NCBI RefSeq assembly: GCF_019059575.1
Contig: NW_024881521.1
Span: 601,297 to 665,296, forward strand
Length of the DNA: 64,000 bases
Direction: 5' to 3'
DNA from: Amphibalanus amphitrite
Taxonomy: Eukaryota
The first letter of the stretch is position 1; each line of letters begins with the position of its first letter. The notes beneath the pieces were generated by a model, which was not told where the DNA came from, did not search any database, and saw only the letters and a list, made by a program, of their open reading frames with translations. Position numbers and translations under genes: made by a program. This document shows positions 4,233-63,462 of this stretch, in pieces.

Positions 4233-4882
4233 CCCGGTCCTGGCCTGACAGCTGGTCTGGTCCGCTAGTGACTGCTGGTGTTGAGGGGAGATAAGACTGC
4301 TGTTGGCAGCTGCCCGGGTGATATCACTGTCACAGACGTGTCAGTGCCTCCCTATCGTCCGATCGTCTGCGGTTGGTGCGGTCAGCTCGGTATTACCGGG
4401 CCGAATATCGCCTCACCAACTGACCGTCTGAGTGGGCTCCAGTTGGACCGAGTACCGTCTCAGATTGGTCCGCGGTGAGGTGGCAGGACGGCTGCGGGAT
4501 TAGTTCCGTACCGGTTATTGATCGGGTGGTGATGGCTGGGGTTCGGTAGTCACTGCTGAGCGAGGCTTGTGAATGATCCGTCCTGCCGTGGACGGCGACG
4601 AAGACGGTGTTATCACCATGGTTATGTGACCCAGATGTACTTGGTCAAAATGTTCCTGCTCGCCTGGCATCGCGTTGCTTTGGTATCGTGTCGTCTAGCG
4701 ACAGTATTTTTTTTAGGCTGATCGAAATTTATAGTAGAGTTTTCCGTTTGGTGGTGATATGTCTTCCTCTCTAGTCTGGTGCTGGCGACTCTCTCCTGGC
4801 TAATAGCCTGTCCCCAGTGTGACTATGACCCCGAGTGTACTGTCTGAGTGTCGCTGTAATTGACTCCGTCCGTCTGTTTCAG

Positions 4883-8649: not shown

Positions 8650-9705
8650 GTGAGTCAACGGGTCTGTCGGTGATACATTGATCAATGGGTGTTGCTGATT
8701 TTCCCGGCCTCTTCTTTTTCATCAGTCATTTTCCGTGAGTCAGTCCGTTGTTCATTTAGTCGGGTAGTTATTTCAGCCAACCGGTGAGCTAGCCTGCCAG
8801 TCATTCACCGTGTCATTTACCTACCCATTCCCGGCGGCCCAACCCCACCCCTCCATATTCTGGCTGTTGGAGCCTGTTGTGGCTGGGGTTATGTAGACAG
8901 TATACACACTGTCGTTGCGGCGTTCGGTCAGTTGCCGGGCGGTGTCCGGTGGTAGTATTTCCTTTACCACCCTGTTGTGTGCAGTGTGGGCCGATGGCCT
9001 GTCGGCCCGCGATACGGCGTCGGGCGCCGTGTTACCATCCGGGCCGCCATGGCGACTGGGACGGGGTGTGGGGGCCGCCGACCATCCGATTCCCGAGACA
9101 AGGATGTGAGATGGGGTGGCCGCCTGGCGCACACGGCGTGGGCTTATCTTCACTGACGGGCTGTGTGCCAGACGCTATGTTGTGTAGCTCGCAACAGAAC
9201 AAAACGTGATTGATTAGTAAACGTAATGATAACATCCTCCTCTCCGTCTTCGCTTCTTCCTGGGCTCATTTCGCTGTGAAACTACCGCAGTATTTGGTTG
9301 TCTAACACACCATCTCCTCTCCCTTCCTCAGCTGGGCGTGGTGTGTCTGGAGCAGGGCCTCCAGGCCCAGGGACTGGAGTTGTATGCTCTAACACCCCTC
9401 CCTCCCCCTTCTCTCCTCTCTGTTACAGCTGGGCGTGGTGTGTCTGGAGCAGGGCCTCCAGGCCCAGGAACTGGAGTTGCGTACTCTAACACCCCTCCCC
9501 CTCTCTCCTCTGTTACAGCTGGGCGTGGTGTGTCTGGAGCAGGGCCTCCAGGCCGAGGAACTGGAGTTGTATGCTCTAACACCCCTCCCTCCCCCTTCTC
9601 TCCTCTCTGTTACAGCTGGGCGTGGTGTGTCTGGAGCAGGGCCTCCAGGCCCAGGAACTGGAGTTGCGTACTCTAACACCCCTCCCCCGCTCTCCTCTAT
9701 TGCAG

Positions 9706-9987
9706 CTGGGCGTGGTGTGTCTGGAGCAGGGCCTCCAGGCCGAGGCGCAGGCCTACCTGGACAGAGCGCTCGAGCACGACCCCGACCACCAGCAGGCGCT
9801 GCTCAACTCGGCGGTGATTATCCAGGAGGAGGGGCCCCCGGAGCGGCGGCCGCTCGCCTACCAGCGGCTCCACCGGCTCATCGCGCTCCGACCGTCGGCC
9901 GTCGGACTCGACAGGGTCTACTTCAACCTGGGCATGCTGGCCATGGACGACCACGACCTGGTGCCCGCCGAGGCCTGGCTCAAAAAG
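9706..9987 (+). CDS. TMTC-family exon, TPRs (LGVVCLEQGLQAEAQAYLDRALEHDPDHQQALLNSAVIIQEEGPPERRPLAYQRLHRLIALRPSAVGLDRVYFNLGMLAMDDHDLVPAEAWLKK)
   Basis: ttgcag acceptor at 9700-9705, aag|gtgagt donor; this is the last of five tandem acceptor+exon-start copies, and which copy is used in vivo cannot be told from sequence. Confidence 0.65.
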
Positions 9988-22187: not shown

Positions 22188-23534
22188 ACAGCGTGTCCCA
22201 GAGTTGACCGAACGCTGTTAATCAGTGCATAAGTTAAGGGAAAAATAATTGCAGTTTTTTTTTCTTTTTATCGTCCGATATAGCCAGTGAGGGTAGCTTC
22301 GAAATGGCACATGCAATAGACACGCTAGCTACAACATTAGCCGACAATTGTAGCTAAATGCCAGACGATGATGGCTTCAGTCGTTTTACGGGTCTCCCGA
22401 AACTGGTTGTAAGACGGTTTTCATTGACCTCTTGCCGGTGGATACTATAAATATTTTCAATTAACTTTGCATCCAAACTGTTCTCAGGCCATGAGGCATT
22501 TTCTCTCAAAACCAAAAACTCTGCCTACACCACTGTTGCGCTGTTTTTTGACATCTGAAGTGGAGAGCCTCCATGCCTGAACATGACGTGACCTTTGGCT
22601 TCCAACAGATTTGGTTTCCAAAACAAACCCGTTTATGGCCATTCAGTTCACGACAACCAGTTTTTGTAATGCGTGAATATTACCGCAGTAGCAATATGTG
22701 TTAACGGTCGTCTTTGGGGCATCGTATCAAGCTGAATGAGTGCACCGTGGCTCAAAATGCCTCACACTTTGATTTTCGACGAGTTCCTGGCCGTCTCCGC
22801 TGTTGGGGCGTTGTCACCATCTGACGTCCACACACGACTTTTTATGTCGCTTCAAAGGGCAGAATACCTTCGTAGGACCACAAAGTGTGTTTCCATTCAC
22901 TTTTTTGTTGCATATGTTATGATTTATGGCTGCTTTGTAGTGATTTGCGCTGTCTTTCCGTTAGTTTTGGCATATTTTTCAGATGAGGGGCCCCAAATTC
23001 CAAAATTTTGTCGAAGATAGTGGTCAAAAGTAGACTGATGTTTCGTAGCTAACCCTGATCTGTCGTTTAGCTTGTTTTTGGGTAGATGGGTGACGTTTGT
23101 TGTCCATGACATGGCAACCACCCGCTTGACGACTGGTGCATGCTCTTTTTTGGTCGCGGCCCAGGCTTGACGATCAGCTTATCTCTTGCTCTCTTTGGCT
23201 TCGCTCGCTGATATAACTGCAGTTTGCTCACCCCTGCCTGCTTGCAAATGAGCTACTGGAGCTCTGCAGCAAGAACCATGCCGAAAGTCCGTTTACGAAC
23301 TTCAGAATTATTCACCATGAATTTTTTTTTGGTTGCTGAGGCTGAAAACGAAAAAGGACTAGTCTTTGCTGACTCTGGATAATAACTGACTCGAGTCGTG
23401 ACCGGTCACCAAAAACACACAGTCTCCAAGCTCGATAGCTAAGGCATGTCTTATAAAAGTATATCTAATTAGAATCGAGCGCAATCGTACTTTTAGCCAG
23501 GAAATGAATGTTCGCTCAATTCTGGGACACCCTG
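22188..23534. mobile_element. non-autonomous Tc1/mariner-like element copy A (~1.35 kb), TIR CAG(C/G)GTGTCCCAGA(G/A)TT.., TA-flanked
   Basis: termini cagcgtgtcccagagttgacc / caattctgggacaccctg with TA at 22186-87 and 23535-36. Confidence 0.8.
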
Positions 23535-23548
23535 TACATTGTCATCTA

Positions 23549-24900
23549 CAGGGTGTCCCAGAATTACCCGGACATTGTTAATTAGCGTATAAAATAAGGC
23601 AAACATGATTGCGCTTTTTTCTTTTTGTCGTCCTATATAGTCAACTAGGGTGGCTGTGAAATAGCACATGCAATAGATACGCTTGTTACAAGATCAGCCG
23701 ACAATGATTGAAAATGCCAGCCATTGCTGGTCTCAGTTGTTTTACGGCTCTCCCGAAACTGGGCGAAGGCCTGTTTTCTTTGACCTGTTGCCGGAGGATA
23801 ATACGATCATATAAGATAAACTTAACATCAAAGTGTTCCCGGGTCATAAGGCTTTATCCCCCAAAACAAAAATTGCTGCCTACACCACTTTTGCCGCGTT
23901 TTTTACATCTGAAGTGGAGAAGCTCCATGTCTGAACATGGCGGGACCTTTGGCTTCCAATAGATTTGATTTCCAAAACAAACCCGTTCATGGCCATTTGG
24001 TTTACGGCATCCAGTTTTTTTACTGGTAGAATATTACCGCAGTAGCACTTTGTGCTAACGGCTGTCGTTGGGCCATCATATCAAGCCCAATGAGTGCACG
24101 GTGGCTCAAAATGTCTCACAATTTGATTTTCGACGGGTGCCTGGCCGTCTCTGCTGTTGGGGCGTTGTAGCCATCTGACGTTCACACAAGCCTTTTTCGG
24201 GCGGTTCAAATGACAGAATACCTTCGTTAGACCACAAAGTGTGCTTCAATATAATTTTTGTTGTATATGTTATATTTTTGGGATGAATTGTAGTGATTTT
24301 CGCTGCTTTTCCCGTAGTTTTCGCATCTTTTTCAGGCGAGGGACCCCAAATTCCAAAATTTTGCGAAGATAGTGGTGGAAAGTAGACTGATGTTCTTTAG
24401 ATAATCCTGATCTATCGTTTTGCTAGTTTTTAGCTAGATCAGTGACGTTTGTTGTCCATGACAAGCAACCACCCGTTTGACAACTGGTGCATGGCCCTTT
24501 ATGGCCGAGCCCAAGCTTGTCAATCAGGTTTATCTCTTGCTCTCTCTGGCTTCGTTAGCTGATATAATTGCGCTTTGCTCAATCCTAACTGCTTGCAGAT
24601 GAGCTGCTGAAGCTCTCCAGCGAAAACCATGCCGAAAGTCCGTTTACAAAGTTGAAAACGGGAGTTGATTGACCATCGTTGCCTATAAGTGGCTTAAGCT
24701 GAAAACGGAAAAGGACTACTCTTACTTGACTCTAGATAATACTTGACTCGAGTTGTTACCGGCCACCAAAAGCACACAGTCCCCAAGCTTGATAGCTTAG
24801 GGATATCTTATAAAAGTATGATGCTTGTATATCATTAGAATCGAGCGCAATCGTACTTTTAGCCAGAAAATAAATGTCCGGGTAATTCTGGGACACCCTG
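23549..24900. mobile_element. non-autonomous Tc1/mariner-like element copy B (~1.35 kb), direct tandem neighbour of copy A, 10-bp spacer
   Basis: termini cagggtgtcccagaattacccggacatt / aatgtccgggtaattctgggacaccctg, TA at 23547-48 and 24901-02; internal sequence about 80% identical to copy A. Confidence 0.8.
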
Positions 24901-25326
24901 TAGCTTCATGTCCAATTTATCGTGTTAAAGGTTGCATTATCATGCAGAAGCCTTCACTTTCATCACCTGGCTTCTGCATGTACTCACCCTAACAATAGAC
25001 CAACCAACCAGGCCCTGTGTACCAGGCCAGCCTTGTTGAGGTCACATGCTATTCATGTAGGTATTTAGATTTAACACTGAAGAAACTGGGGTTGTTTTGG
25101 AATCGTCATTATGGCCAGGCTCCAAGTTCCACCACAGGCTAAGGTGGATCAAATGTTTTGTAATCCAATATACCTACCTAATCTATGGGACAAATGATAA
25201 ACTAGTTGACAGTCAGTCTGACTGAATGTGAAATGCCCATTTAGAGAATTGTATAATATTTTTACCTGTCAATGCCCAGTAGCTGAATGTTAACTTTTGT
25301 TTCAGAATTGAAAAGGAGACTGCAAA

Positions 25327-32904: not shown

Positions 32905-35450
32905 GGGGCCTATTGTTGTTGTTGTTGTTGTTCCCCCTGGGACCTCCTTACGGAGGACCATAGCCGAGAGGCTCCCTATGGCGAAGGTAGCCGGCCTCCA
33001 AGGCAGCCACCAGGTCGGCGTCCCGCAGCCGCGACGGGTCGACGTGAATGCTGCCAGTTAGCCGCAGGCGGGCGCCAGCGAGGGCCGGGCAGCGGAGCAA
33101 CACGTGCTCCGGCACGTCCGCCTCTTCCCGGCACACGGCGCAGAGCGCCGTGGGGCACCGCTTATCGGGGCACTGCAGGCATGCCACGGAGGGGTGGCGG
33201 CCGATCCGGTGCAGGTATTGGAGCGAGCGGCCCCAGTGGCCCACCCTCCACTGGTGCACCGAGATGGCGGCCTCTCGGTCCTCTCCGGGGATGGGGAGCG
33301 GCAGGGTGCTCCCGAAGATAGCCTTGAAAAAGGAGTCGGGCCAGTTTTCGCGCCACTGACGTGTGGTCGTCCGATGAACTGCCCGTGTCAGGGGCCGAGC
33401 GTCCGAGGGCACGGCGCCCTGGGGCAGGGTGGCCGCTTGCTTGGCCAGGGCGTCAGCGCGCTCGTTCTCCGCCAGCCCGCAGTGAGCAGGGACCCACTGC
33501 AGGGTCACCTGCCGGCGCTCGGCAATGTCCAGCAGCGTCCTCCAGATCGCCGCGCCGAAAGTGGAGGTCTGGGCGGCCGCTCCCGCGCTGAGGAGGCTCA
33601 GGGCGGCTCGTGAGTCAGAGCACGCCACCAGCGGGGCGGGGGACGGCTCATCCCGGACCCGCTCCAGCGCCGCCCTCAGGGCGAACAGCTCCGCACGGGT
33701 GCTGGAGCAGAGGTCTCCCGCCACCACCTCAACCTCGAGAGTCTCCCCCGACGCGGTAAAGATGATGGCGCCGCCCCCTCGCCTCGCCTGACCCCAGCGT
33801 CCGCAGAGCCGTCGGACCAAATCCACGTGGCCTGGGCTGGGAGCGCCGCCAGGTGCTGCCGCGCGGCCTCTCGTCGCGTCTCGTTGGAGGAGGCTCGACG
33901 ACCGCCGGGTCCCACGTCCAGATTGAAGGCGATCGGGCGGCAGGTTGTCCACGGGAGGAGGGGAACCTCGAGGCGCGGCTCCACCGTCACTCCCTCGGCG
34001 CCCGCCTCGATCAGCGCCGATCGCCCCAGTTGTCGCCAGCCGGTGGTAGACCGCAGTCGAGTGGGTGGGTCGGCCTCCGCGACGCGGCGAAGAGGGTCGT
34101 CCTCCGGCAGGGCGAGCGCTCGGCAGAGCGTTCGCGCGGCCAGCGTCTTCCTGGTGGACCATGCTGAAGGGATGCCAGCCTCGGCCAGCAGGGGATCCCT
34201 GGGGGTGGACCTTGGGCATCCGGTCACCACCCGGGCTGCCGCCAGCAGCTCGCGCTCCACCAGCTGAACGTGTGACGGGGACGCGGCCGGGAGCCAGGCA
34301 CCCGCTGCGTATTCAAGGGCTCCCCGGACATACCCGTTCGCGACTGTCCTGAGCTGCGCCTCGCGGAGACCCCAGGCCCGGCCGGTCATCCTCCGCAGCT
34401 GTGCCGTCCGCGGCCGGACCTTCCGCCGCAGCAGAGAGTCGCAGTGGTCTTTAAAGTGTAGAAGTCTGTCGAAGGTCACCCCCAGAAGATGTAGGCTGGT
34501 GCCACCGGTGACCTGCGTGCCGTTCGCCAGGAGTTGCACGCCGCGCTCGTCCCTGCTCCGCTGAGTCAGCAGCAGCGCCTGGGTCTTCTGTCCGGCGATG
34601 GACATCTTCCAGTGCCTTGCCCATCGGGCCAGGGCGTCGGCCGACTTCTGGGCGCGAGCCACCGCAAGCTCTACGGTGGCTCCAGCGCTCAGTGTGGCCC
34701 TGTCGTCCGCATACATCAGGACGTCCGTGCGGTCCGAGGCGTTCCGCAGGGTCTCGATAAGGTCCGCCGCCCAGAGCGTGTAGATGGTCGGTGCCAGGAC
34801 CGAGCCCTGCGGCAGGCCCGCGCGGAACACGCGCTCGCTGCTGTGCGCGCCGTTGACCTCTACGCGGGCCCGCCTGCCGCGAAGGAACCGGAATTTCCAG
34901 GTCGCGAGACATCTGGGGAGGAGCTTGAGGAGCTTCAGGTGCAACATCCGGTGATCGATCGTGTCATAGGCACGGGAGAAGTCGAACGCCAGGAGGACAA
35001 AGCGGTCCGCCGTCACGCCATCCTCCGGGCCTCGTCTCGGCTTGGGGCGATTCCAGCCATCTTGAACCGTTTGGACCAAGCGGGCCAGACTGTCCTCCGC
35101 CGACCTCCCGCGGCGGAACCCGACCTGTTCGGGGGGCACCAGTCGGTCTCGCTCGATGAGGTAGGTCGTCCGGGCCGCGATCATCCGCTCCGCTAGCTTG
35201 GCGATGTGACTCGTGAGCGCGATCGGGCGGTAGCTGCCCACTTGTTTGGGGTCTTTGCCGGCCTTAAAGATAGGGATGATGGTCGCCCGTCGCCATGAGG
35301 CGGGCGTCTCGAGGTTGGACCACGATCTGTTGATGAGTGCCAGAAGGGTCCGGTAGGCCGTCGGTCCGAAGTGCCGCAGGTGTTCGGTGCATACCCGGTC
35401 CGGTCCTGGCGCCTTCTTCGTCCCGAGGTGTCGGATTTGGTCGTCGGATT
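32905..35450 (-). mobile_element. 5'-truncated, frameshifted RNase-H-containing non-LTR retrotransposon (I/R1/LOA-type): RT, RNase H, C-terminal CCHC finger
   Basis: rc ORF 33676..35676: RT motifs (GPD.., FADD-equivalent YADDRA..); rc ORF 32948..34219: RNase H (..WVPAHCGLAENERADALAK) and C..C..H..C finger; (CAA)n 3' tail at 32918-32936; ~70% GC, unlike the host introns. Confidence 0.85.
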
Positions 35451-35883
35451 GGGGCCTGTCTGTGGGAGAGACACACAGCCCAACAAACGACGCCAGTACT
35501 TCTGCAGAACGATCGCCTGCAGAGACAGCGGGAGCATAGTCAGACGCGGGGAGACAGTCACACGGGCCAGCCAGCGACGCCAGTGCTTGTGAGGAACGAC
35601 TACCTGTGAGGGCGAGGGGAAGACTGTTGGTGCGTGTGGGGGGGGGGGGGGGGCACGGCATATCAGCGAGAGGCACAGATTGTCGCTGATATGGACCAGA
35701 CCACTGTCAAGTGTCAAAATAAATTATTTTTACAAGCTAAGCGAAATATGTGAGGGTACTTGATTGTTTATGAATGGTTAAACATAGCGAAGCTAGTTAT
35801 AATTTCCAAAATCCCACACCATGGCTGTAATACTGTTTGTGAGCATGCCGCCAGTGCAAGACCCAGCGCGGCGCCGCTCTCAC

Positions 35884-40099: not shown

Positions 40100-41100
40100 A
40101 TGCCTAGTTACATTGTTAGGTTACACAATTACAAAAGAAAACAATGTGTGTACATAGTCACAACATGGCATGATTCAGTCAACGTAAGAAAACAGTACAT
40201 CTGGAATGCAGGCATCCAACATTTTTTTTAAAGTTCTGTATACTTTGGGCATTCACCACATAATCTGGCAGCGAGTTCCACGTATCAATCACCCTCACTG
40301 AGAAAAAACGTTGTCTGGTGGACGTGTTACCGTGTGTGCGATGAATCTTGAAACTATGGCCTCTGGTGCGGTTCAAGGGAGTGGTAAGGAAAAGATCATC
40401 TGGAGAGATGAAGGACTGTCCATGGAAGATTTTCCAGCACAGGAGAAGATCGGCCCGCTTCAGTCTGCCCTGGACAGAGTACAATTGCAATGACTGGAGA
40501 CGATTAGCATAACTGAGAGTTTCAAGTCCAGAGATCCGTTTAGTCCAGCGTCGCTGCACCCTTTCCAGTAGCCGGAGGTCCTGCAGGTAACCTGTGTTCC
40601 AAAGGCTTGAACAATAGTCTAAGATAGGTCGGATGTGTGTTTTGAGCAAAAACAACATAAACTCCGGAGAGCGGCTTACCGTTGATCTGAGAAAGTTCTG
40701 AGCAAGACCGCCAGCTTTGTGGCACACGTTTTGAATATGGGTGTGAAATTTCAAATCAGTATCGACCGTGACTCCCAAATCTTTAGCTGAATTGGCCCGA
40801 GGGATTTCTCTGCCATTCAAGAAGTAAGCTGGAGCATCGCTATTGCGCCTCCTAGAAAAACTAAGGACTGCACATTTTGAGACATTCATATGAAGACCCC
40901 AAGATAGAGCAGTGTCGTGGAGTGAGTTGATGTCATCCTGGACACATTGGTGGGATACCGCTGGCGTCTCAGACAGTCGTGTATGATTCACGCATGCGTA
41001 AATCTTGAGGTCGTCAGTGAAAATTTTGTATTGGCACTTGAGGGTGGACGCCACACTATTAATATTGATATACACCAGGAAGAGTAAGGGCCCCAGGACA
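40100..41100 (-). mobile_element. 5'-truncated CR1/L2-like non-LTR retrotransposon fragment (RT C-terminus plus 3' UTR), same clade as 20.9-21.7 kb
   Basis: rc ORF 40179..41075: ..FTDDLKIYA..LSWGLHMNVSKCAVL..LERVQRRWTKRI..RTRGHSFKI..RVIDTWNSLP. Confidence 0.85.
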
Positions 41101-41243
41101 GAGCCCCACCATCACCACTAACAGCTAAATGTGTAGATGAAGTTAGAGTAAAACACATAATCTAACCTGACCTAGCCTTACCTACTTACCTACAACCTAC
41201 CAGCCTACACACTTTGAACCAACCAGCCTACAACCTACAAACC

Positions 41244-44200
41244 CAGTAGGCGGAACTATGGTCAAGCGTACCCATTTTCGGGAACGCATTTTCGTTCCCA
41301 TGTTTGGGAACGATAAACCCAAATATGGGAACGCCATGTAGGCATTATTTAAAACAAGAAAAAGAACCGTTAAATGACGTCCAAAAAAAAAAAAAAACGA
41401 TCGTGAACCGCCTGATATTTGTCCCAATATTGTTGGGAAAGAGTTTGATATTGTAAGGCCCATCGTAGTTTCAAATCGTTCCCCTATTTCTAAAGCAGTC
41501 CATCATCCGGGCCGCGAGCCCAAATTTGGGAACGCTCTCGTACACTGGCGCTGCAAGCGTTCCTTATTATGGGAACGGCGTACCCAAAATTGGGAACGAT
41601 TTCACCGACGCCTTTCAGGGGCTCTTTTCATTAACAAGCATCACGTCCAACGCCGCAAATTATTGTTAACGCAACAATCATCAGATGACCTTTCCGGCAA
41701 GACCGTCGCATGTTACGCCCGGTCTTCTGCGCTTTTATTCCCGTCGATCTCGCAGCGGGCACGCCCCCCTCTGCAGGATTACGTAGTTCACAACGCTCAG
41801 CGATGTTCAACAAGGTCTTCCATACCTATATCCACCGTCCGCGCCGAGGGTGGAGACATGTCAAGCACCTGTCTGTTTATCACCGATAGTTGACGAGCAC
41901 AAGGAAGTATCCAAAAATGGGAACGCTGAATATGTTACACCCTCAAAACACCTAGTCCCAATGAAAATCTAGTTTTTTCCTTTCTTGATGGGTGTAAGTG
42001 GCAAAAGGCCTGGTAGGATGGGCACGAGGAATGATCGAGATCAGCATAAAAATTATAAATAAGCCACACAAAGCGACCTATATAAGAGAAATTCCCCCAA
42101 AACGATCGTGCTTAGAAACACGGAAGACAAAAATCACGCTCATGACGCTCCTTATAAAACAACGCTTAAAGGGACTGTCCCACCTTAACATTAGATTTGA
42201 GTTGAGATAGCCATCTTGATGGACGTTCTTTGAAAATCAGTGCCGTGAAAACCGTTTCTCCAGCAATTACTTCATCGCAAAGAAATTTGAGTTTGATTTT
42301 GACATCTGTGCAAATAAGTGCCACAATGTATTGGTATAGGCACTTAAATCTGATGACGTCATCAGGCTTTCGAACGTCCGTTAAATGTTTGACTAAAACG
42401 TTTTGTAGCACGCGGTGGTATATGCTGCGTTGCGCGCAACAAATGCCGCACTTTTAAATAAAGTCGCTAGGAACAGCGGAGATCCCAAAAAGTAAACAAA
42501 AGTAAAAGTCTAATATCTTCAAAACCGGTGAATATTTTTCGGTGAAATTTGGTAGATATTCGTTTTCGCTCTTTCTGAACCGAGCGACATCACTTTCATG
42601 CCAATTCATAAACTTTTTTAAAGGTGGGAGGGTCCCTTTAACAGCTAGCATCCAAATAAAATATGTCTTTCCGGGATGATAAAATACAGCTGAATAATTT
42701 TAAACCACTGAAACCGAGTTTACAACAGTAGTTCGGTAAAATCACTGACGTTCCACGCGGTCGTGCGCCCCGACACCAAAAGTCAACAATATTACCTCGG
42801 GACTGTCCGCGTGTTCGCTTGCATATGTCAGCATCTGGTGTCGCTAGTATGAAACTTCATAACCAGGCGAAAATTATTGTACTTGACCTCAAAATGTAAA
42901 AAACGCTTCATTTTCCTTAAAATTGCAAGTTAAATGTAGTATAACCCATGTTTTCACCATTCCGTCATTTCAAAAAATCATTAAAAATATCATTCGACGG
43001 TCAATTTCCTTGTGCAACGGTCAGATTAAAGATAATTTTATAGAGACTTAGTACGTAACCGGACAAATCTTCGTATGGCAATTCTTCGTCGCGCAATTCC
43101 TCGTCCGCATTTCTTCGTCCGCAAATCTTCGTCGGCGCATTTATTCGTGTCGCATAACTTCGTCTCGCATTTCTTCGTAAGCGCAAATATTCGTAGCGCA
43201 TTTTTTCGTATCCGCATTTCTTCGTACGCGCATTTCTTCGTCAAGCATTTTTTCGTCCACGCATTTCTTCGTCTACGCAAATCTTCGTCCGCATTTCTTC
43301 GTCCACGCAAATCTTCGTCTGCGCATATCTTCGTCCGCAAATCTTCGTCCCCGCAAATCTTCGTCCGCAAATCTTCGTCCGCATTTTTTCGTCCACGCAT
43401 TTCTTCGTCTACGCAAATCTTCGTCCGCATTTCTTCGTCCAGCAAATCTTCGTCCCGGCAAATCTTCGTCCGCAAATCTTCGTCCGCCAAACTTCGTCCG
43501 CAAATCTTCGTCCGCAAATCTTCGTCCGCATTTTTCGTCCACGCATTTCTTCGTCCACGCAAATCTTCGTCCGCAAATCTTTGTCTGCGCATATTTTCGT
43601 CCGCAAACCTTTGTCTCCGCTATCTTCGTCTCCGCAAACATTCGTCCACAAATGTGGTTCAATAAAACCATGAAGAAATATCAGACCATCAAGTGATTGA
43701 CGAATTTAATGCATGGAATGGATGATCGAAACTTTTGAAGTCAGGTAGATGGGGTCTGTCCGGTGAAGCTATTGTATTTGGGAGCCGAGAATTGAAACAT
43801 TCCATATCATGTGTCCCGGACATTCTTTTTTCGCGGTCGATGAATGACAATACAATCTCTTGTACCCTCGCCGGCATAGGCGGCGGAACGGGGAGGGCAC
43901 CGGGGCACCGTTCCCCTCTTTAATTTTGGCCTTTTAACAGTAGCCCTATGGGCGTTGCATGGAAAGAATGGGACTAAAAGTCGGCAGTGCCGTGCCCCCC
44001 CCCCCCCCCTAATTGAATGTGTTCCGCCGCTACTGCTCGCCGGACCTATTTGTTTTCTACATATACGCCGGCCGAGGGGGGCGGGTACGACCCCCCCCCC
44101 CCCCCATCGCCGTTTCGCCACTGGTGGAGCTAGCGCGTCGCGGAAAAAACGAGCGTGTGCGCCGTTACGAGACGCAGAGGTTAATACCCGATTTTAAGGC

Positions 44201-45925
44201 CTTCTAGGTCAGGGGTCGGCTTACAGCCCGCGGGCCGGATCCGGCCAGGAGGGTGACGGTTGGATCCGGCCCGCGACCATCTGACGTCCGGCCCGCGCAA
44301 GTTTTGTCTAGAAGTAGAATTAGACAAAAACACCCGCAAATGGTGTTTATAAACTCATGAAGTGTGCGAAGGAAGAACTATTGTGCCAAAGCACATTTAA
44401 GTCACTTTTATATCGGAGTCGATTTCTGAAGGAACCGCGGGCCGGAACACGATGTAAGTCGATGATACCAGCCGCGGGCCGGACGTCAGATGGTCGCGGG
44501 CCGGATCGAACCGTCACCCTCCTGGCCGGATCCGGCCCGCGGGCCGTAAGCCGACCCCTGACCTAGAAGGCCTTAAAATCGGGTATTAATCTCTGCGTCT
44601 CGTAACGGCGCACACGCTCGTTTTTTTCCGCGACGCGCTAGCTCCACCAGTGGCGAAACGGCGATGGGGGGAAGGGGGGGGGGGTCGTGCCCGCCCCCCC
44701 CCCTCGGCCGGCGTATATGTAGAAAACAAATAGGTCCGGCGACGGCGAGCAGTAGCGGCGGAACACATTCAATTAGGGGGGGGGGGGGCTTGGCACTGCC
44801 GACTTTTAGTCCCATTCTTTCCATGCAACGCCCATAGGGCTACTGTTAAAAGGCCAAATTAAAGAGGGGAACGGTGCCCCGGTGCCCTCCCCGTTCCGCC
44901 GCCTATGCCGGCGAGGGTACAAGAGATTGTATTGTCATTCATCGACCGCGAAAAAAGAATGTCCGGGACACAAATGATATGGAATGTTTCAATTCTCGGC
45001 TCCCAAATACAATAGCTTCACCTGACAGACCTCATCTACCTGACTTCAAAAGTTTCGATCATCCATTCCATGCATTAAATTCGTCAATCACTTGATGGTC
45101 TGATATTTCTTCATGGTTTTATTGAACCACATTTGTGGACGAATGTTTGCGGAGACGAAGATAGCGGAGACAAAGGTTTGCGGACGAAAATATGCGCAGA
45201 CAAAGATTTGCGGACGAAGATTTGCGTGGACGAAGAAATGCGTGGACGAAAAATGCGGACGAAGATTTGCAGACGAAGATTTGCGGACGAAGTTTTGCGG
45301 ACGAAGATTTGCGGACGAAGATTTGCCGGGACGAAGATTTGCGTGGACGAAGAAATGCGGACGAAGATTTGCGTAGACGAAGAAATGCGTGGACGAAAAA
45401 ATGTGGACGAAGATTTGCGGACGAAGATTTGCGGGGACGAAGATTTGCGGACGAAGATATGCGCAGACGAAGATTTGCGTGGACGAAGAAATGCGGACGA
45501 AGATTTGCGTAGACGAAGAAATGCGTGGACGAAAAAATGCTTGACGAAGAAATGCGCGTACGAAGAAATGCGGATACGAAAAAATGCGCTACGAATATTT
45601 GCGCTTACTAAGAAATGCGAGACGAAGTTATGCGACACGAATAAATGCGCCGACGAAGATTTGCGGACGAAGAAATGCGGACGAAGAATTGCGCGACGAA
45701 GAAATGCCATACGAAGATTTGTCCTGGAATCGACTTAGTAGATACTTAAATTAGCGTGCACTTTTTTGAGACGTGATGCACTAATGAGTTTTAGTGGGCG
45801 AACGGCCGAAAAATTAACTTCCGTTCTCATAAATGGGAACGCCCGTTCCCATATTTGGGAACTCCGTTCCCAAAAATGGGAACGTTCCTATATTTGGGTA
45901 CTCATGACCATAGTTCCACCTACTG
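41244..45925. mobile_element. ~4.7 kb non-autonomous TIR DNA transposon; ~30-bp TIR CAGTAGG(C/T)GGAACTATGGTCA(A/T)G(C/A)GTACC and GGGAACG subterminal direct/inverted repeats
   Basis: left terminus 41244-41273 is the reverse complement of right terminus 45897-45925; multiple T(T/A)GGGAACG motifs at 41285-41620 and 45815-45890; no transposase ORF. Confidence 0.7.
43061..45735. repeat. Foldback-like long palindrome (~2.7 kb, arms ~1.3 kb, centre ~44390); arms consist of a minisatellite of ~12-13 bp units (cgcaaatcttcgtc / cgcatttcttcgtc); centre is itself a GC-rich hairpin
   Basis: 43061-44200 is the reverse complement of 44570-45735; the RKSSSA/ADEDLRTKICG 'ORFs' on both strands are translation artefacts of the tandem array. 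Confidence 0.85.
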
Positions 45926-48900
45926 AACCCACAACATAACCTACCTACCTACCGCCGACGGTGACGCCAGCTTTACCGATAGGTACCGAAAATGCTAGGA
46001 TACGTCAGCACCTCTGACCAGTCGTTAGATTTTTATCTACTTGGACTTCATCTTCACATTTAATAGTGTGTGCCCACAATTATCAATTCACACTTAACAC
46101 TGAAAATGTCATTGGTTAAAATCAAAATTGAAATAGACGCCAATCGCCATATCTACTCACCAGCCGCAGAGCGAGTGTAGGACGCCTCAGCAGTCAGCCT
46201 CCGTCGTCATCGTTATTTCGTCGAAGAAAACAAAGACGAAATGAGGGAAAACACCATTAATGCATTATGCATATTTAATGGAAAATATAAATATCCGGCA
46301 GTGTCTAGTACGTCCCCTCCCACTCTTTTTTCTCTCTTTGAAAAGACCAAGGCCCTATATGAAAAGACAAAAAATGTGTGAGCGCTCAGGGCCGAATACA
46401 ATGCAGTGTTCCAAATAAACTACAGAATAAATATGACGTCATAGGCTCGATCTTGTTTTGATCTGATATGACGTCACATAGAGTTTGGTACAAGACTGTG
46501 TAAACAGCATCGAGGCTATATAAACGATAAAGTTGATTTAAAGCTGACTAAAATATTTGACTTCTTAAGAAAAATTTAAAACTGTAGGCAGGCTTAAATT
46601 GATAACAGTTTTAAAAAAATGCATGCTGATCCTTAAACATCTCATTTGCCTTGCTACCTTTGCCATTTCAACGTTTTTTAAACAATTAAGCATAAGATAT
46701 CATAAACCAAGCTCTTTTTGGCAAAATAAGCAAAGCAAAGCATATCTATTCCATGATTTTTAACTTTCCAAAGAAATAACTTTTAAGTAATACGTCATTT
46801 ACAAAGGCTTATATTATCGTGATTGGCGCGATTTCTAAACTAATGCGCCATGGTCGTATAAATTTTCCCGCTGAGGATGCGCACACAACACACACATTTT
46901 GATATTTGCAATTGTGTAATTTGTTGATAATAAATGCACTATATTGATATAGTTATTGATCTGTATCCTTTCTTATATTATTGTTATTGTGCTATGTTAT
47001 TTATGTGCCTAGTACCTTCAGCAAAGGCTTTAAGCTGTTTCTGTGATGACATATGATCAGGGCCAGTGTTGGAAAAGTTGCCGTTTTCTGGTATCAGATG
47101 CGCCAGGAATTTTGTACTCCACTGGAAAATGACAATTTTTGTACTCCAATGACTACGCGTCCCACACAAATAAAAGGGTGTGAAATTTGACAATGAACTG
47201 CCCATACTCCCTTGTGTTACAGGTACCCAGTGGAAACACAGCTTCTGCAATAACTGCATCCCAGCCCGGGGGCCCAACCCAAGTCAGGGCAAAAACTACA
47301 AGTACAATGCACAGCATAATGAAGATCGAAGAGCCAAATATCCTGCATAACATCCACCAGCCGTGATGAACAACTACCAGAACTGATACTTGTACTGGTA
47401 CATTGCTGTGTTATGCTTAACAAATTTGAATTATGTGCTTACGTGGTCCTGTAGACAATGTACCTACATGAAATAAACATACATGCAAAGTGTTGTATTT
47501 TGTGAGCTTAATAACTAAGAATGACTTGCATTTGTGCCAAGTCCAAATCCAGGATGATGATGAGGTACAAAGTTATCAAAAACGCCATGGAGTACCTATT
47601 GGTCTGGACCAGGGTCTGGACTAAACGCTGCATGTGTACCTATCGTAATAGGGATCATAGGGATATCCGGATATCAACTCACAGGCCCGACCACAAAATG
47701 AATGAATATACGTCGCAAGGTATATAAAAACACTTTACTAATTACTATACAATAATACACTATACATCTCATTATGATGCGTCGTATATATTCCTATCTC
47801 CATGCCGCTACCTACCACAGCAAAAATAAGTGCGCAATGATTGTCTTTTTGTTAGAGATGATCAAGTCAGCACAGCTTCTGTGGAGTCGCTGATTCAGTT
47901 CTCCTAAGGATGGAATTTTAAATGGTTTATGATCGGGAGACGACTTGGAATCTTTCGACATTTGCATCGTAACTGTTGCTCAAATAATGATTGTTTGTGG
48001 TTTAAAAAAAGGAGAAAAATACAACCTTTCAAAATATGACCAATTTTTTCCAAATGAAATGCCGTAACTGTTAATATTGAAGATTTTCTGAACTGGAAAC
48101 TCGATGATAAAACTTAAAGTGCAGATCCAGTACTCCTTTGCCAATTGTATGCTCCACACAGCTCCGTTTCTCATGGCCCGGCTATGACAGATACAAAATT
48201 GAGCCTGCTTTCTGATGGTAGGCAGTTTTTGGCCAGAGGACCTATGGTTATTGTGAAATTGGTGTTCAAAGGCTGTACTCCGACCTCTGTCTCCGGGTCC
48301 TGTTGCCGTAGCGTAATCGCGATTCCGTGGTATGTGCTGTGCCAACTCTATCGGGCCGCTTATTTCGCCGCGCCGATATTTGTGCCGCTGGTGCCGCCGG
48401 CGGCGTTTTCCACATTTTCGAAGCTGGCTGAAGTAATTATATTTTCGTTTGTTTTCCATTGTTGCCTGTTTTCCATGCTATGAGTATAGTTGTAAGAACA
48501 ACCTAACAGGTTTTGTCTTTTGTAATTGTAATCAAGCGTGGGCCGTGGCCGTGGGCATTGGCATTAGCGGTGGGGTAAGTGAACGTTCCACTTTGATTTT
48601 GGTCTGGTTCCTTTCATGATAGTAAATAATAAATATGTACTATGATGACTATGATGATTGATTGATAATTTGACTGTTACCTGGAGTGGAGTTAATATCA
48701 CTATCATTAACCTCCCAATTGTCTTTGCTGATCTAGGTACTATCATTTCTCTGACCCTGAATCAGAATATTCATTCTTATTTTAAGTCATAAGCATGATT
48801 CAACAAAGTGAAGTCCTATACATAAGTTGTCTAACAAATTCAGATAATCTTGCTTTCAGTTATAGCTTGCATTTCATTATATTGCATGACTAAGTAGTGC

Positions 48901-55595: not shown

Positions 55596-55847
55596 GTGGG
55601 CGATCGCCCCACAAGGGTTAGATACATATTTGTTTGAGGTCGTTTGTGTTGGTGGTATCGCCACACAAGCTATATGACTGGGTTTTGACGCTACTGTCGG
55701 TGTTGGAGCATAGGGCAACTGGCGAAACGCCCTAAGGTCCAATAATTATCATTGATCTTTGCACTCTCTTGGTTAGTTCGATAATATATTTTACCAATTT
55801 TCCGGCTTCCTCCCCACGACCGCCAATCCCGCTCTGCCCGTTTCCAG

Positions 55848-56054
55848 ATAGTGGACCGGTTTAACGACCCCTCGTCTCCCGAGTTTATCTTCATGCTGAG
55901 CAGCAAGGCGGGCGGCTGTGGGCTGAACCTGATCGGCGCCAACCGCCTGGTGATGTTCGACCCCGACTGGAACCCGGCCAACGACGACCAGGCCATGGCG
56001 CGCGTCTGGAGAGACGGACAGAAGAAGCCCTGCTTCGTCTACAGACTGCTGGCG
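55848..56054 (+). CDS. RAD54L: RAD54L exon, helicase C motifs ([69 protein letters not shown])
   Basis: near-identical to human [69 protein letters not shown]. Confidence 0.92.
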
Positions 56055-56321
56055 GTGAGCATAGAGCCGACGTTCAATGTGTCCATAACAGGCTGCATTT
56101 TCCTGTGTTGCATGTCGAGCGCCGATGTTTAATTAAGTCCAGGCGTATTTGCTTCGGTAGTACATAAACTGATCCACCTGGGACGGCGTAAATCAATACT
56201 CATAGTCATTGTCGTATGCGGCATCATGGTAAAGTGGTTCGACATGCAGCCCCTGTAGCATTTTCCCCAACCTCAACATGACTTTCTCGATCTGACGGAC
56301 CTCAATCGTTACTGCTGTCAG

Positions 56322-59714: not shown

Positions 59715-62700
59715 TTATGTCATTGCTCTCCCTCGTCCGACACTCCAGCGGACCAACTCACCGTCCGCAGTGTAGTACGAAGGCATCCGCTGAGCAGCAC
59801 TCGCTGCCGCACTACTCCTCTCTGGCGCGGCTGGGGAGCCGTCCACAATCCGTCGCTGCTGCTGCTGCTGCGGTGCCGGCCGCGCCGCCGCCGGGGCTGC
59901 CGGCCGGCCGCCGAGCGCCGCACTCAGCGCTGCACTGAGCACATCCCTCGCCGGCTCACCAGCCGCGTACAGTCCCGACTGACCGCTGGTTGGGGCCGAG
60001 TCCTGACGGGGCAGCGAGCTGCGGCGGCCCGCCGACCCGGCAGATACACCCGGGTAGTGGGGCTGCGCGCGGCCTGCCGCCTGGCTCAGCTGGGCCAGGG
60101 GGTCGGTCCGGGAGGCGGCCGAATCGTGACGAGACACGGCGTGACCGAGCAGGTCGTGACGTGACGACGCCGAGCCGAGATCTCGAGACAGATGACCAAG
60201 GGCGGGGTCATGTCTGGAGGTGGGCTGACTCAGGGAGTCACGCCGGCCGCCGGACTGACTCGGGAGCGACTCTGGGCGGAGAGTCGACTGACCGAACGAG
60301 TCCCGCCGTGAGCTGAGTCCCAGTGGTGGCTCCTGTCGTGGCGAGCCATGTGAGAGCTGAGAGTCGGAGCGGGAAAGGCGACTCTCCTGGCGGGGACTCT
60401 GGTGAGAGAGCAGGTGGGGGTCCTGACGGGAGCTCTGATGGGTGAGATGGGGGTCCTGGCGGAGTCCCTGGTGAGAAAGGTGGGGCTCCTGCCGAGGACT
60501 GGGGTGATTCAAATGGGAATCCTGCCGAGGGCTGGGATGATTCAAATGATGATCTTGGCGAGGACTAGGATGATTCAAATGATGGTCCTGACGGGGACTA
60601 GGGTGATTCATATGGGAATCCTGGCGGGGACTGGGATGGTTCAAATGATGATCTTGCCGGGGACTCGGGTGATTCAAGTGGGGATCCTGGCGGGGACTGG
60701 GCTGGTTCATGTAGGACTCCTGCCGTGGACTCGGATGGCCCGCATGAGGCTCTTGCCGCGGACTCCTCTGAATAAGCTGCGGCTCCTGCCGCGGACTGCG
60801 ATGGCTGAAATGCGTCTCTTGGCGAGCACTGGGCTGGCTAAAATGCGACTCCTGCCGTGCACTGGGTTGGCTGAAGTGTGGCTCCTGCCGCGGACTTGGC
60901 TGGCTGAAGTGAGGTTCTTGTCGCGGGCTCGGCTGACTGAAATGAGGTTCTTGCCTCGGACTGGGCTGGTTGAAGTGCGGTTCTTGCCTGGGGCTGGGCT
61001 GACTGAAGGTGGAGTCCCGCCGCCCGCTTTGTTGGCTGACCGCCTGCTCATGTCTCGAGCCGAACCCACCCGTCAGCTGGGGGTCCGCGCGGCCCACGCC
61101 GTGCTGCGCGAACACCGGCGGGCGGTGGTGTGGCGAGGCCGGTGACGGCGGGTTGGGCGCCGGCGGCGGCGGCGCCGGGTCAGCGCGCGGCGCAAAGTGC
61201 GCCATCAGACCCTCGGCCTGCTCAATCCTGGAGCGGGGCGCCGGATCGGCGCGGGCCCCGCCGCCACCCGGCCGGTGTCCGCCGCCGTACGGGTCCGGAC
61301 TGAAGGCTGAGCGGGATACAGCCGGCTGCTGCTGCTGCGGCTGCTGACGGGTCGGCTGCTGAGGCGCCGAGCCGCCCTCAAACGCTGCCAGAACCGCAGA
61401 ACGGGACGGCGCAAAACCGCTCTGAAGATTGGTGGCCACAGATCGTGCCGGCGATACTGGCTGCATCTCCGGCGAGAACGGCGACGAATGGGTGCCACTG
61501 AACGGCGAGCCCACTGACGTGCCCTCCGGGGAGAAAATGTCCGCCTGGCGCGCCGCCAGCTGGAGAATGCTGCTGCGTGCCGGCGGAGAGGCTGCCTCCT
61601 TCAGCTGGTTGAAGCTCATCAGGTCCTTGATCACACAGTCGAGCTCCTCGTTCAGCTGGCCACCGCCACCAGACAGGTCCAGACCCTGGTCGGCGGGCGG
61701 CTCGGGCGGCGGCGGGGGCGGCTGGGGCGGGGGCGGCGGCGGGGGCGGCGGCTCGGCGGGCGGCTCTGGCACCGGTGGCTGCCGGCGGGAGTCTCCGCCG
61801 CCCCGACCGTCCGTCAGACTGGAGCGCCGGCCGGCTCTGGCGGTCTCAGCCGGCTCCGACCAGCACTCACCACTGGGGCGGCGCTCCCCGTCCGTCAGCG
61901 GCGAGAAGAAACTGTTTGTGATACTGTCCGTGCTCGCCTGCCGACCGCTCAGGATCGCATCCATGGCGGCCGCTCCCACACTGTCCGCACTGGCTGTCCG
62001 GGCCCGCTCGGGCGCCTCGTCCCTGACACCACTGTCCTCCCCGCCCCCTCTGCTGATCACCGAGCCGCCGCGGTCGCCCCCGACAGTCCGTCCCCCTATC
62101 ACCTCCTCCTCCCAGGGTGCTGATACACGGCCGTCACCGGCGCTGTCCAGCGCCGCCAGCCGCTCCGTCAGACTGTCCGTGCTCGGCCGGCGCACAGACA
62201 GGTCGGCCGCAGCCGTGGTCGGAGTGCCAGACTCCGAGCTGGTGCGTCGCCGGCCCACCGTCGGCTCCGGGCTCACACACAGCGAGAAGTCTGCCTCGCT
62301 GCCACCCATGATGGAAGCCACCGCGTCGTTCATTTCGGCTTCATTGATCTCCCGGAAGCGTTTCTTTTTCTCTGCCTCCGCGGCGGCGGTTGCAGCTGCG
62401 GCTGCTGTCGCTGCCTCGTCGTCCGTCGGCTCGACCCCGGCCGCAGCCGTCGGCTGGCTCTGAGATCTGCCATACAGGTGGATCTTCTTGGGGCTGTGGT
62501 GACGGTCGGCGGCGGGCTGCTGCGGCGCGGCCGGCGCGCGAGGCTCGGCGGCCCGCAGCTGCTCCGGGGACGGCAGCAGCGGCGGCCCGCCGGCGCCACT
62601 GAGACTGGCGCGGCGCGGTGGCGACCGATCGGCGGGGGTGGCGGCGGGAGCGGCAGATGAGGCGTTAGCAGCGGCAGCGGCGGCGGAGGCATTAGCAGCG

Positions 62701-63249
62701 GCAGCCGCCTCCTGCTGTCGTTGCTCGTGAGAACGCTGAGCCGAGCTGCTCATCCCCTGCCGCAGTTTCTCCAGCTCCAGCTGAAATCCTGACGTCACCG
62801 CCGGAGTTTCCACCGGAGGTACTGTTGCGGCAGGGGGCGCCGCCGCGGCCACCGGCGCAGCGGGCACGGCGCTCGGGGCAGAGGTGACGGCAGGACTGGC
62901 TGCAGCCGGATCCCTGGCCGGCGCGGCGGGAGGGGTGGCAGCGGGCGCAGAAGGCGCCGCCGCAGCCGCCGGCGGGGTCCCACCGTTCTGGAGCCGGTGT
63001 TTCGGGCTGGTAGGCCGGGTCGTCTGATGAGCGGCCTGATGGGCGGCTGGAGGTGCAGAGCTCCGCTCAGATCCGCCGCTTGAGGGATGCGAGTGCTTTG
63101 GTCGCTTCTCGCCTGGTTTGCGGCCGGGCCCCGAAGGCTTTGAGCTATCAGACTCCGGCTTTGGACTGCGCTTCTTCTTCATCGTCTTTCGTTGTAAGTT
63201 GGTGGCGTCATCAAAGGCAGTCTGGAGCCGTTTCAACTCCGCCTTATAC
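59715..63249 (-). CDS. 3.5-kb terminal coding exon of a Pro/Ser/Ala-rich low-complexity protein (~1178 aa from this exon); contains tandem 11-aa coding repeats (QPSPRQEPHFS x~7, then NHPSPRQDHHL x~7)
   Basis: rc ORF 59715..63263 with no stop across 3.5 kb of 70% GC sequence; upstream tttgtctgtttacag acceptor at 63250-63264 implies the exon begins at about 63249 (phase 2); stop at 59715-17. Confidence 0.7.
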
Positions 63250-63462
63250 CTGTAAACAGACAAACACGGAACCCGTCAACTAATGAAGAATCATCAGGCA
63301 AAACATGCCCATGTGCGATATCATCAACATTCGCGACGCGTAGTGTTTCCCTCTCGTTCTCTTCTTCCCCTTCCCTCTAACTACCTGACGACCTCAGTAC
63401 TGCTGTCCTCCGGTACCCGCGCCCTCCCTCACTCACTCTCTCCAATCTAGGCATCCACCCAC

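Follow-up and report, generated by a model that had tools for sequence, protein, structure and literature searches.

Foldback transposons carry long inverted arms that contain tandem sub-repeats and enclose a short non-coding middle domain, and most of them have been placed in the Mutator superfamily by their 8-10-bp target duplications (PMC4079207). The Drosophila element Tetris also makes duplications of 8-10 bp (PMC4079207). In the Tm1 elements of root-knot nematodes (Meloidogyne; Gross & Williamson 2011), two asymmetric 7-bp motifs, A1 and A2, lie outside the inverted repeat; the elements also have a 3-bp motif, GGA, tandem units of 13-15 bp and 9-bp duplications. Non-coding Tm1 derivatives with nested elements occur, and the autonomous member encodes a Phantom-type Mutator-like element (MULE) transposase (PMC3169594). 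Here we describe a locus of the barnacle Amphibalanus amphitrite, within a stretch of 64,000 nucleotides (GCF_019059575.1, contig NW_024881521.1, positions 601,297 to 665,296; referred to below as the window). Window positions 41244-45925 end on either side in terminal inverted repeats (TIRs) and contain a long palindrome. We find that this interval very probably consists of three independent, non-autonomous cut-and-paste DNA transposons that became nested through successive insertions. The nest comprises an outer TIR element with a 4-bp target duplication as host, a TTAA-flanked miniature inverted-repeat transposable element (MITE), and a Tm1-like Foldback element that itself holds a hAT-like MITE.

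Nesting and order of insertion

We sampled DNA via the genomic surroundings of A. amphitrite proteins, covering ~420 kb of barnacle-type DNA. This yielded a paralogue of the outer element, ~97% identical and 1.52 kb in length, at positions 3088-4608 of contig VIIS01001684.1 (GCA_009805615.1; locus L010). The paralogue aligns with the window in three parts (Table 1) and is without both the 42170-42637 and the 43054-45731 block. The shorter block lies between two TTAA copies in the window; at the corresponding place in L010 there is one TAAA. At the site of the longer block, the window has GACTTAGTA on both sides, and L010 carries a single GATTTAGTA at 4415-4423, an empty site. The second and third L010 matches overlap here by exactly 9 bp, because this is the duplicated target. 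Since L010 is without either block and both of its sites are uninterrupted, the palindrome and the 468-bp block are later insertions into a pre-existing element.

A sequence-only reading of the interval had treated the palindrome as part of the outer transposon, a claim that the L010 copy with its intact 9-mer contradicts. The same reading had called the structure composite, which is borne out by the separate insertions in the outer element, and it had asked for the termini at other genomic copies, which L010 provides.

We propose the following order of events. The ~1.52-kb TIR element would have entered a degenerate (CCTAC/CCTAA)n tract with duplication of a 4-bp target. A 468-bp TTAA-targeting MITE would then have been the first insert, at 42166-42169, and the 2,678-bp Foldback element the second, entering 43045-43053 with duplication of 9 bp. 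All of these events are fairly recent, because the divergence between the Foldback arms (2.8%) is similar to the ~3% that separates the two outer copies, and the window array from a related array at locus L008. No further copies of the outer element or of the Foldback element were found within the window. All three elements are without coding capacity, and they are new families of kinds already known. The locus offers a clean worked case of transposons nested in one another, in a crustacean whose genome is poorly annotated, and the empty-site paralogue dates the order of events. It also yields three or four new barnacle transposable element families with defined ends and target duplications, useful in repeat libraries.

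Table 1. Features of the nested interval in the window and of matching loci (L-numbers denote sampled loci).
Feature	Position	Strand	Remarks
Outer element	41244-45925		TIRs 21 bp, 11 dyads, 4-bp duplication AACC
Left target-site duplication AACC	41240-41243		read directly in sequence
Left TIR CAGTAGGCGGAACTATGGTCA	41244-41264	+	identical TIR at L010 3088
Outer segment 1	41244-42169	+	ends in TTAA target of nested MITE
Left subterminal zone, 7 dyads (GTTCCCAnnnnTGGGAAC type)	41268-41924		starts 41268, 41294, 41315, 41516, 41559, 41580, 41907
Nested MITE, 468 bp, TIRs AGGGACTGTCCCACC / AGGGACCCTCCCACC	42170-42637		TTAA at 42166-42169, 42638-42641
Outer segment 2	42638-43053	+	ends in 9-mer target GACTTAGTA (43045-43053)
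Left target-site duplication GACTTAGTA	43045-43053
Foldback element	43054-45731		2,678 bp
Left tip, CGTAACC then GGA	43054-43063	+
Left-arm tandem array	43064-43650	+	~39 units of 13-16 bp, consensus CC(AC)GCAWWTCTTCGT
Left inner arm	43651-44297	+	non-tandem, 56% GC, dispersed-repeat mosaic
161-bp MITE, ends CATAGGCGGCGGAAC / CAGTAGCGGCGGAAC	43875-44035		mirrored in right arm at 44750-44907
Loop (middle domain)	44298-44472		175 nt, non-palindromic, 42% GC, non-coding
Right inner arm	44473-45130	-	mirror of 43651-44297
Right-arm tandem array	45131-45721	-	unit for unit in register with left
Right tip, inward GATTCCA then GGA	45722-45731	-
Right target-site duplication GACTTAGTA	45732-45740
Outer segment 3, 4 dyads	45741-45904	+	dyad starts 45823, 45845, 45866, 45884
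Right TIR, inward CAGTAGGTGGAACTATGGTCA	45905-45925	-
Right target-site duplication AACC	45926-45929
Window 41244-42169	L010 3088-4010		identity 97.2%
Window 42640-43053	L010 4009-4423		identity 97.6%
Window 45732-45926	L010 4415-4609		identity 97.9%
Tip CGTTACC + GGA	L003, right end		type of window left tip
Tip GATTCCT + TGA	L003, left end		type of window right tip
Tip CATTCCC + GGA	L007		type of window right tip
Tip GGTATCC + GGA	L001
Second-repeat copies	L015 44826-45003, 30357-30530, 20032-20141, 39365-39476
Second-repeat copies	L013 7710-7818, 14183-14256; L009 14507-14577

The Foldback element: structure, relatives and origin

In a gapped alignment of the Foldback arms (43061-44297 and 44473-45724; 1.24 kb each) we counted 1220 matches, 14 mismatches and 21 gap bases, an identity of 97.2%. 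The near-perfect palindrome described earlier is thus real. Folded as single-stranded DNA, the element reached -1725 kcal/mol, compared to ~-390 kcal/mol for shuffled sequences, with 1222 of the 1281 predicted pairs formed arm to arm. The repeat unit, GCAWWTCTTCGTCC, is 13-16 bp long (mostly 14 or 16 bp) rather than 12 bp as first read, and occurs ~39 times per arm, the order of the units being shared by the two arms; the arrays are made of GCAWWTCTTCGTC. Tandem arrays make up no more than the outer ~600 bp of an arm, so that the description of the arms as arrays holds for this part and fails for the inner ~650 bp, which are non-tandem. The innermost 98 bp of each arm have a GC content of 72-73% and contain the 14-bp palindromes GGCCGGATCCGGCC and CGGCCCGCGGGCCG. 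What had been taken for a GC-rich hairpin centre (44200-44570) corresponds to these segments around the 42%-GC loop of 175 nt.

With long arms containing tandem sub-repeats, a short non-coding middle, a target duplication and occurrence at several loci, the palindrome has the make-up of the Foldback class, in agreement with the initial description of it as Foldback-like. When the inner arms and the loop were translated in six frames, the pieces matched no Pfam family even at E <= 1. Rfam and tRNA scans of the window returned nothing, and we therefore see no origin from a tRNA or a short interspersed nuclear element.

To find relatives of the element, we took a long open frame within the array (45133-45738) and compared its translation to predicted proteins. 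The translation matched 10 metagenome open reading frames (ORFs), and the contigs of these ORFs carry the same unit family at 74-82% identity, ending in conserved tips. One of them, a 68-kb long-read contig (L003), contains a second complete foldback of ~1.6 kb, in which the terminal units are of the same family but the inner repeat is another one, of 20 bp. Positions 108-437 of L008, an unrelated locus, are 97% identical to the outer 330 bp of the right-arm array. Single arrays are present in L001, L004-6 and L007, and related arrays stand without the outer element in L001, L003, L004, L007 and L008. Sample SAMN08714628 (L002) was collected in a study of marine biofilms (PMC6355793), which are a plausible source of barnacle DNA. 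An exact-pattern scan for the unit dimer in metagenome, genome and viral contigs, which contain little eukaryotic DNA, gave 0 matches.

The tips of the window element are the 7-mers CGTAACC (left) and GATTCCA (right), which are not complementary to each other. Because both tip types recur in other loci (Table 1), the 7-mers are genuine element ends. GGA is present at 6 of the 8 tips examined.

Judged from its sequence, the Foldback element was most likely mobilised in trans by a Mutator-like (MULE, Phantom/Tm1-type) DDE transposase. This assignment follows from the Tm1-like architecture and from the placement of most foldbacks in Mutator by their 8-10-bp duplications. The duplication in the window is exactly 9 bp and thus falls in the Mutator range, and the ends show the asymmetric 7-bp tips, the GGA and the ~14-bp units of the Tm1 type. 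Recognition by a MULE-type enzyme would involve the tips as well as the reiterated ~14-bp units, and the target would be cut with a 9-bp stagger. No MULE or FLYWCH domain turned up in the gene calls of the sampled loci.

Several observations weigh against this interpretation or against parts of the nesting scheme. For none of the three elements did we find a transposase, and the superfamily assignments rest on duplication length and end structure. The tip and repeat-unit sequences cannot be aligned with those of Tm1. A clean duplication is seen in one Foldback copy only, that of the window; in the older foldback of L003 a target duplication is not recognisable, and the tip of L008 is different over its final 7 bp. 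Of the outer family, the sampled DNA contained two copies only. Merlin elements make duplications of 8-9 bp. AcademH, too, produces 9-10-bp duplications (PMC7165386).

The Foldback element could accordingly belong to a non-Mutator superfamily, such as AcademH, Merlin or a Galileo-like P group, and owe its shape to convergence. Foldback architecture is known to arise independently, and Galileo has a P transposase (PMC3169594, PMC3688188). AcademH combines duplications of suitable length with TIRs that are sometimes long, and no transposase was found for the Foldback. However, the layout of tip, GGA and ~14-bp unit agrees with Mutator-type Tm1 point by point, and in nearly all Academ families the 5' end is a pyrimidine and the 3' end a purine, whereas the 3' terminus of the Foldback is C. 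P and Galileo duplications are 7-8 bp long, which counts against a P-like affiliation. We regard convergence in another superfamily as unlikely, although worth bearing in mind, and prefer the Mutator-like assignment.

Two further alternatives concern the palindrome as such, and we give very little credence to either. In one, the interval would be a single composite transposon, with the palindrome moving as cargo of the outer TIRs. The palindrome does lie wholly between these TIRs, and the outer element, if still mobile, would now carry the insert. However, the 97% identical L010 copy is 1.52 kb long, contains a single uninterrupted 9-mer and is without the palindrome, which moreover has its own 9-bp duplication and conserved tips and has related arrays without the outer element. 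In the other, the palindrome would have arisen in situ, by local inverted duplication within the outer element. The mirrored hAT-like MITE described below indicates arm duplication or conversion at some stage. Yet in-situ duplication would not leave the palindrome flanked on each side by the same 9 bp of host sequence, nor would it import arrays and tips common to unrelated loci, and the L010 copy has no part that looks like half a palindrome of this kind.

Foldbacks are recombinogenic and hard to assemble, and the reality of the one in the window matters for judging the assembly. A chimeric inverted duplication of reads, which the sequence-only reading had named as a refuting case, is the least credible alternative of all and is excluded: several arm differences are poly-C/poly-G length changes typical of long-read errors, but 14 substitutions are spread over the arms (2.8% divergence) around a unique 175-nt loop, the non-complementary tips each recur in other loci, the exact 9-bp duplication has a matching empty site in L010, and L008, which stems from an independent short-read assembly, matches the outer array at 97% identity.

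Insertion of a separate Foldback element being the reading we favour, the question arises how its arms were built. The inner arms are a mosaic of other dispersed repeats, pieces of which are repeated in L009, L011, L013, L014 and L015. One component is a 161-bp MITE flanked by an 8-bp duplication, CTCGCCGG (43867-43874 and 44036-44043). Because of its 8-bp duplications, this MITE can be called hAT-like. Further copies are present at L014 17554-17707, L014 26479-26644 and L011 22914-23061, with duplications matching at 8/8, 7/8 and 6/8 positions, respectively; MITE length across copies is ~155-160 bp. The MITE stands at the start of a second dispersed repeat, 44036-44211 (mirror 44559-44746), which contains poly-G/poly-C runs, forms part of the inner arms and has copies in three other loci (Table 1). 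In the right arm, the MITE, its 8-bp duplication and the second repeat all stand at the mirrored places, which shows that one arm was copied from the other after the MITE had landed. This copying occurred by inverted duplication or by arm-to-arm conversion, after which the completed palindrome transposed as a unit into the outer element. The mirrored MITE is direct evidence of copying between foldback arms.

The outer element, the TTAA MITE and their surroundings

The TIRs of the outer element, CAGTAGG[C/T]GGAACTATGGTCA, agree between the two ends at 20 of 21 positions, with one C/T difference; the L010 copy has the same TIRs, including this difference. The element ends of the family are CAGTAGGYGGAACTATGG. 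Even with 3 mismatches allowed, the TIR has only 2 matches in the 64 kb (0.00 expected). Inverted similarity of the ends continues ~90 bp inward, as the TIR followed by successive ordered dyads. The inverted ends noted before, given there as ~30 bp, are real and in the right place, with a TIR of 21 bp and ordered similarity over ~90 bp.

All 11 exact TGGGAACG sites of the window lie within 41293-41925 or 45834-45884 (1.9 expected), that is, inside the subterminal zones, where such motif clusters had been pointed out. The sites are halves of an 18-bp palindromic dyad, GTTCCCAnnnnTGGGAAC, of which there are 11 (7 left, 4 right), and no dyads were detected elsewhere in the window at <=2 mismatches. 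The dyads are presumably binding sites of a transposase supplied in trans.

In the window the element is flanked by ACAAACC before CAGTAGG on the left and by AACCCAC after CCTACTG on the right; in L010 the corresponding flanks are ATCCAGTT before CAGTAGG and AGTTGCAG after CCTACTG. An exact 4-bp direct repeat is thus present in both copies (2/2), AACC in the window and AGTT in L010. The chance of both 4-bp repeats is ~(1/256)^2, and no other duplication length from 2 to 10 bp matches in the flanks of either copy.

The outer element has no ORF of note, and its six-frame pieces gave no Pfam family even at E <= 1. A 2,095-residue six-frame pseudo-protein of the element found no match among 5.8 billion predicted proteins. 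The element is non-autonomous, as had been proposed. The left ~1.8 kb had been held to be unique sequence without a transposase ORF; the absence of an ORF stands, but the segment holds the nested 468-bp MITE. Contigs of metagenomes and of GTDB genomes, again with little eukaryotic DNA, gave 0 matches to the outer TIR in an exact-pattern scan.

The degenerate (CCTAC/CCTAA)n tract around the outer element covers 41100-41243 and 45926-45955. A similar tract at L007 7345-7452 lies between 23-bp inverted repeats (ACACGTGCTGCCATATCTGTCAC...), suggesting a MITE with a microsatellite core, and L003 8581-8609 is (AACCT)n, equivalent to TTAGG, the telomere-type unit of arthropods. The low-complexity repeat of L007 was uninformative as an empty-site proxy for the outer element. 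Note that a 271-residue GenBank gene model at L010 3801-6091, which has no Pfam domain and lies partly inside the outer copy, is probably spurious or derived from a transposable element.

The 468-bp MITE has TTAA-flanked copies in L009, L011, L014 and L015, at up to 97% identity. In a first survey 6 of 7 termini had TTAA, as did each of 4 more in L015. The 468-bp insert thus shows the TTAA duplication of the piggyBac/Kolobok type. A piggyBac-type transposase domain, PF13843, is annotated in this genome (P0052).

The window as a whole is rich in repeats. At 32948-35706 (- strand), ORFs of a non-LTR (long terminal repeat) retrotransposon with RVT_1 and RNase_H domains occupy two overlapping frames. 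The reverse transcriptase ORF is 96-98% identical to several A. amphitrite proteins or gene models. Some of the matching models are chimeric with host genes (SPAG6, RNF13, Exportin-4 and HPS1), the exons of transposable elements having been merged into the predictions. None of the A. amphitrite proteins retrieved is encoded in the window itself. At 40179-41111 (- strand), immediately left of the low-complexity tract, is a C-terminal reverse transcriptase fragment of a non-LTR (long interspersed nuclear) element, with an FTDD motif and the tail ...NRTRGHSFKI, the reverse transcriptase tail proper being placed at 40179-41075; this fragment had no Pfam match at E <= 0.01. A ~1.35-kb tandem duplication spans 22258-24902 (22258-23536 against 23615-24902, 75-89% identity).

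Host exons with TPR repeats lie at ~5.7-10 kb. Among them, tandem repeats of ~90/97 bp at 9300-9750 (+ strand) each resemble a splice acceptor followed by a TPR exon (..CTCTGTTACAG / CTGGGCGTGGTGTGTCTGGAGCAGGGCCTCCAGGCC), which may be an exon duplication. An exon-like segment at 55785-56129 (+ strand) matches Helicase_C (E = 4e-13) and is SNF2/RAD54-like, marking a host gene ~10 kb to the right of the nest. On the - strand, 59718-63275 is an open frame of 1,186 codons, with 68% GC and a Pro/Ser/Gln-rich translation in which SPRQEPHFSQP is reiterated. Its only Pfam match was a weak one to TFIIA; the frame may be a big exon of low complexity, or the GC content may have produced it artefactually.

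Comparison with known systems

The locus leaves the present view of transposons unchanged. Only two of its aspects are mildly unusual: the superfamily placement of the outer element, and how closely the Foldback element resembles nematode Tm1 in architecture.

For the outer element, a hAT assignment was considered because of the CAG start and a TIR like that of the 161-bp MITE. hAT target duplications are 8 bp, rarely 5 or 6 bp (PMC7165386). The 8-mers flanking either outer copy do not match, and we rejected this assignment because of the 4-bp duplications in 2/2 copies. The outer TIR core (CAGTAG-GCGGAAC; CAGTAGGCGGAAC) does resemble the core of the MITE, CAGTAGCGGCGGAAC, although the duplications are 4 and 8 bp, respectively; a rather improbable explanation of this likeness would be related transposases with different target staggers. 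Sola1, Sola2 and Ginger2 fit by the 4-bp length. Their targets are AWWT for Sola1 and Sola2 and TATA for Ginger2 (PMC3845634, PMC3627910), and we rejected them because AACC and AGTT, the two sites at hand, conform to neither. AcademX makes 3-4-bp duplications, a compatible length, with the 4-bp type reported from a red alga only (PMC7165386).

EnSpm is the animal superfamily reported with 2-4-bp duplications (PMC7165386). The 4-bp duplication of the outer element lies in this range, and EnSpm/CACTA-Chapaev (CMC) elements resemble it further in their short TIRs and many subterminal repeats in both orientations. CMC/CACTA consensus termini begin 5'-CAC(TA), whereas the outer terminus is CAGTAGG, one base off CACTA. 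On these features EnSpm/CACTA-Chapaev would fit best, and yet we leave the element unclassified. It may instead represent an undescribed cut-and-paste lineage, because hAT-like CAG termini, 18-bp palindromic dyads and duplication of a 4-bp target other than TTAA and not rich in AT fit no superfamily cleanly. We consider this quite improbable, and equally so the idea that the layout of tip, GGA and ~14-bp unit shared by a crustacean and nematodes reflects an ancient, conserved end recognition by Phantom-type MULE transposases.

The 468-bp MITE resembles piggyBac-type elements in its TTAA flanks, short TIRs, small size and multi-copy nature. It differs in that its TIR starts with AGGGAC, whereas piggyBac TIRs start with CCC. 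Kolobok likewise targets TTAA.

The Foldback element shares with the Drosophila Foldback elements FB and Tetris long tandem-repeat arms, a short non-coding middle domain, a modular mosaic structure and the occurrence of solo or rearranged arrays elsewhere in the genome. FB makes a 9-bp duplication and has units of 10, 20 or 31 bp. Differences are the Tetris unit of ~220 bp, the absence of sequence similarity and a host in a different phylum.

With Tm1, the barnacle element has in common the 9-bp duplication, asymmetric tips outside the inverted repeat with GGA beside each, TIRs of tandem units (mostly ~14 bp), non-coding derivatives and nested insertions. In contrast, the tips are CGTAACC and GATTCCA in the barnacle and CGGTTAA and CCTACCC in Tm1, and the units, GCAWWTCTTCGTCC and CGATTCAGTATCGC, are unrelated or faintly similar. 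There are ~39 units per barnacle arm compared to 1-9 in Tm1, the barnacle arms have ~650 bp of extra mirrored sequence, and no GA-rich motif D was seen in the barnacle element. Thus, Tm1-like ends carry the Mutator/Foldback design beyond nematodes, to a crustacean.

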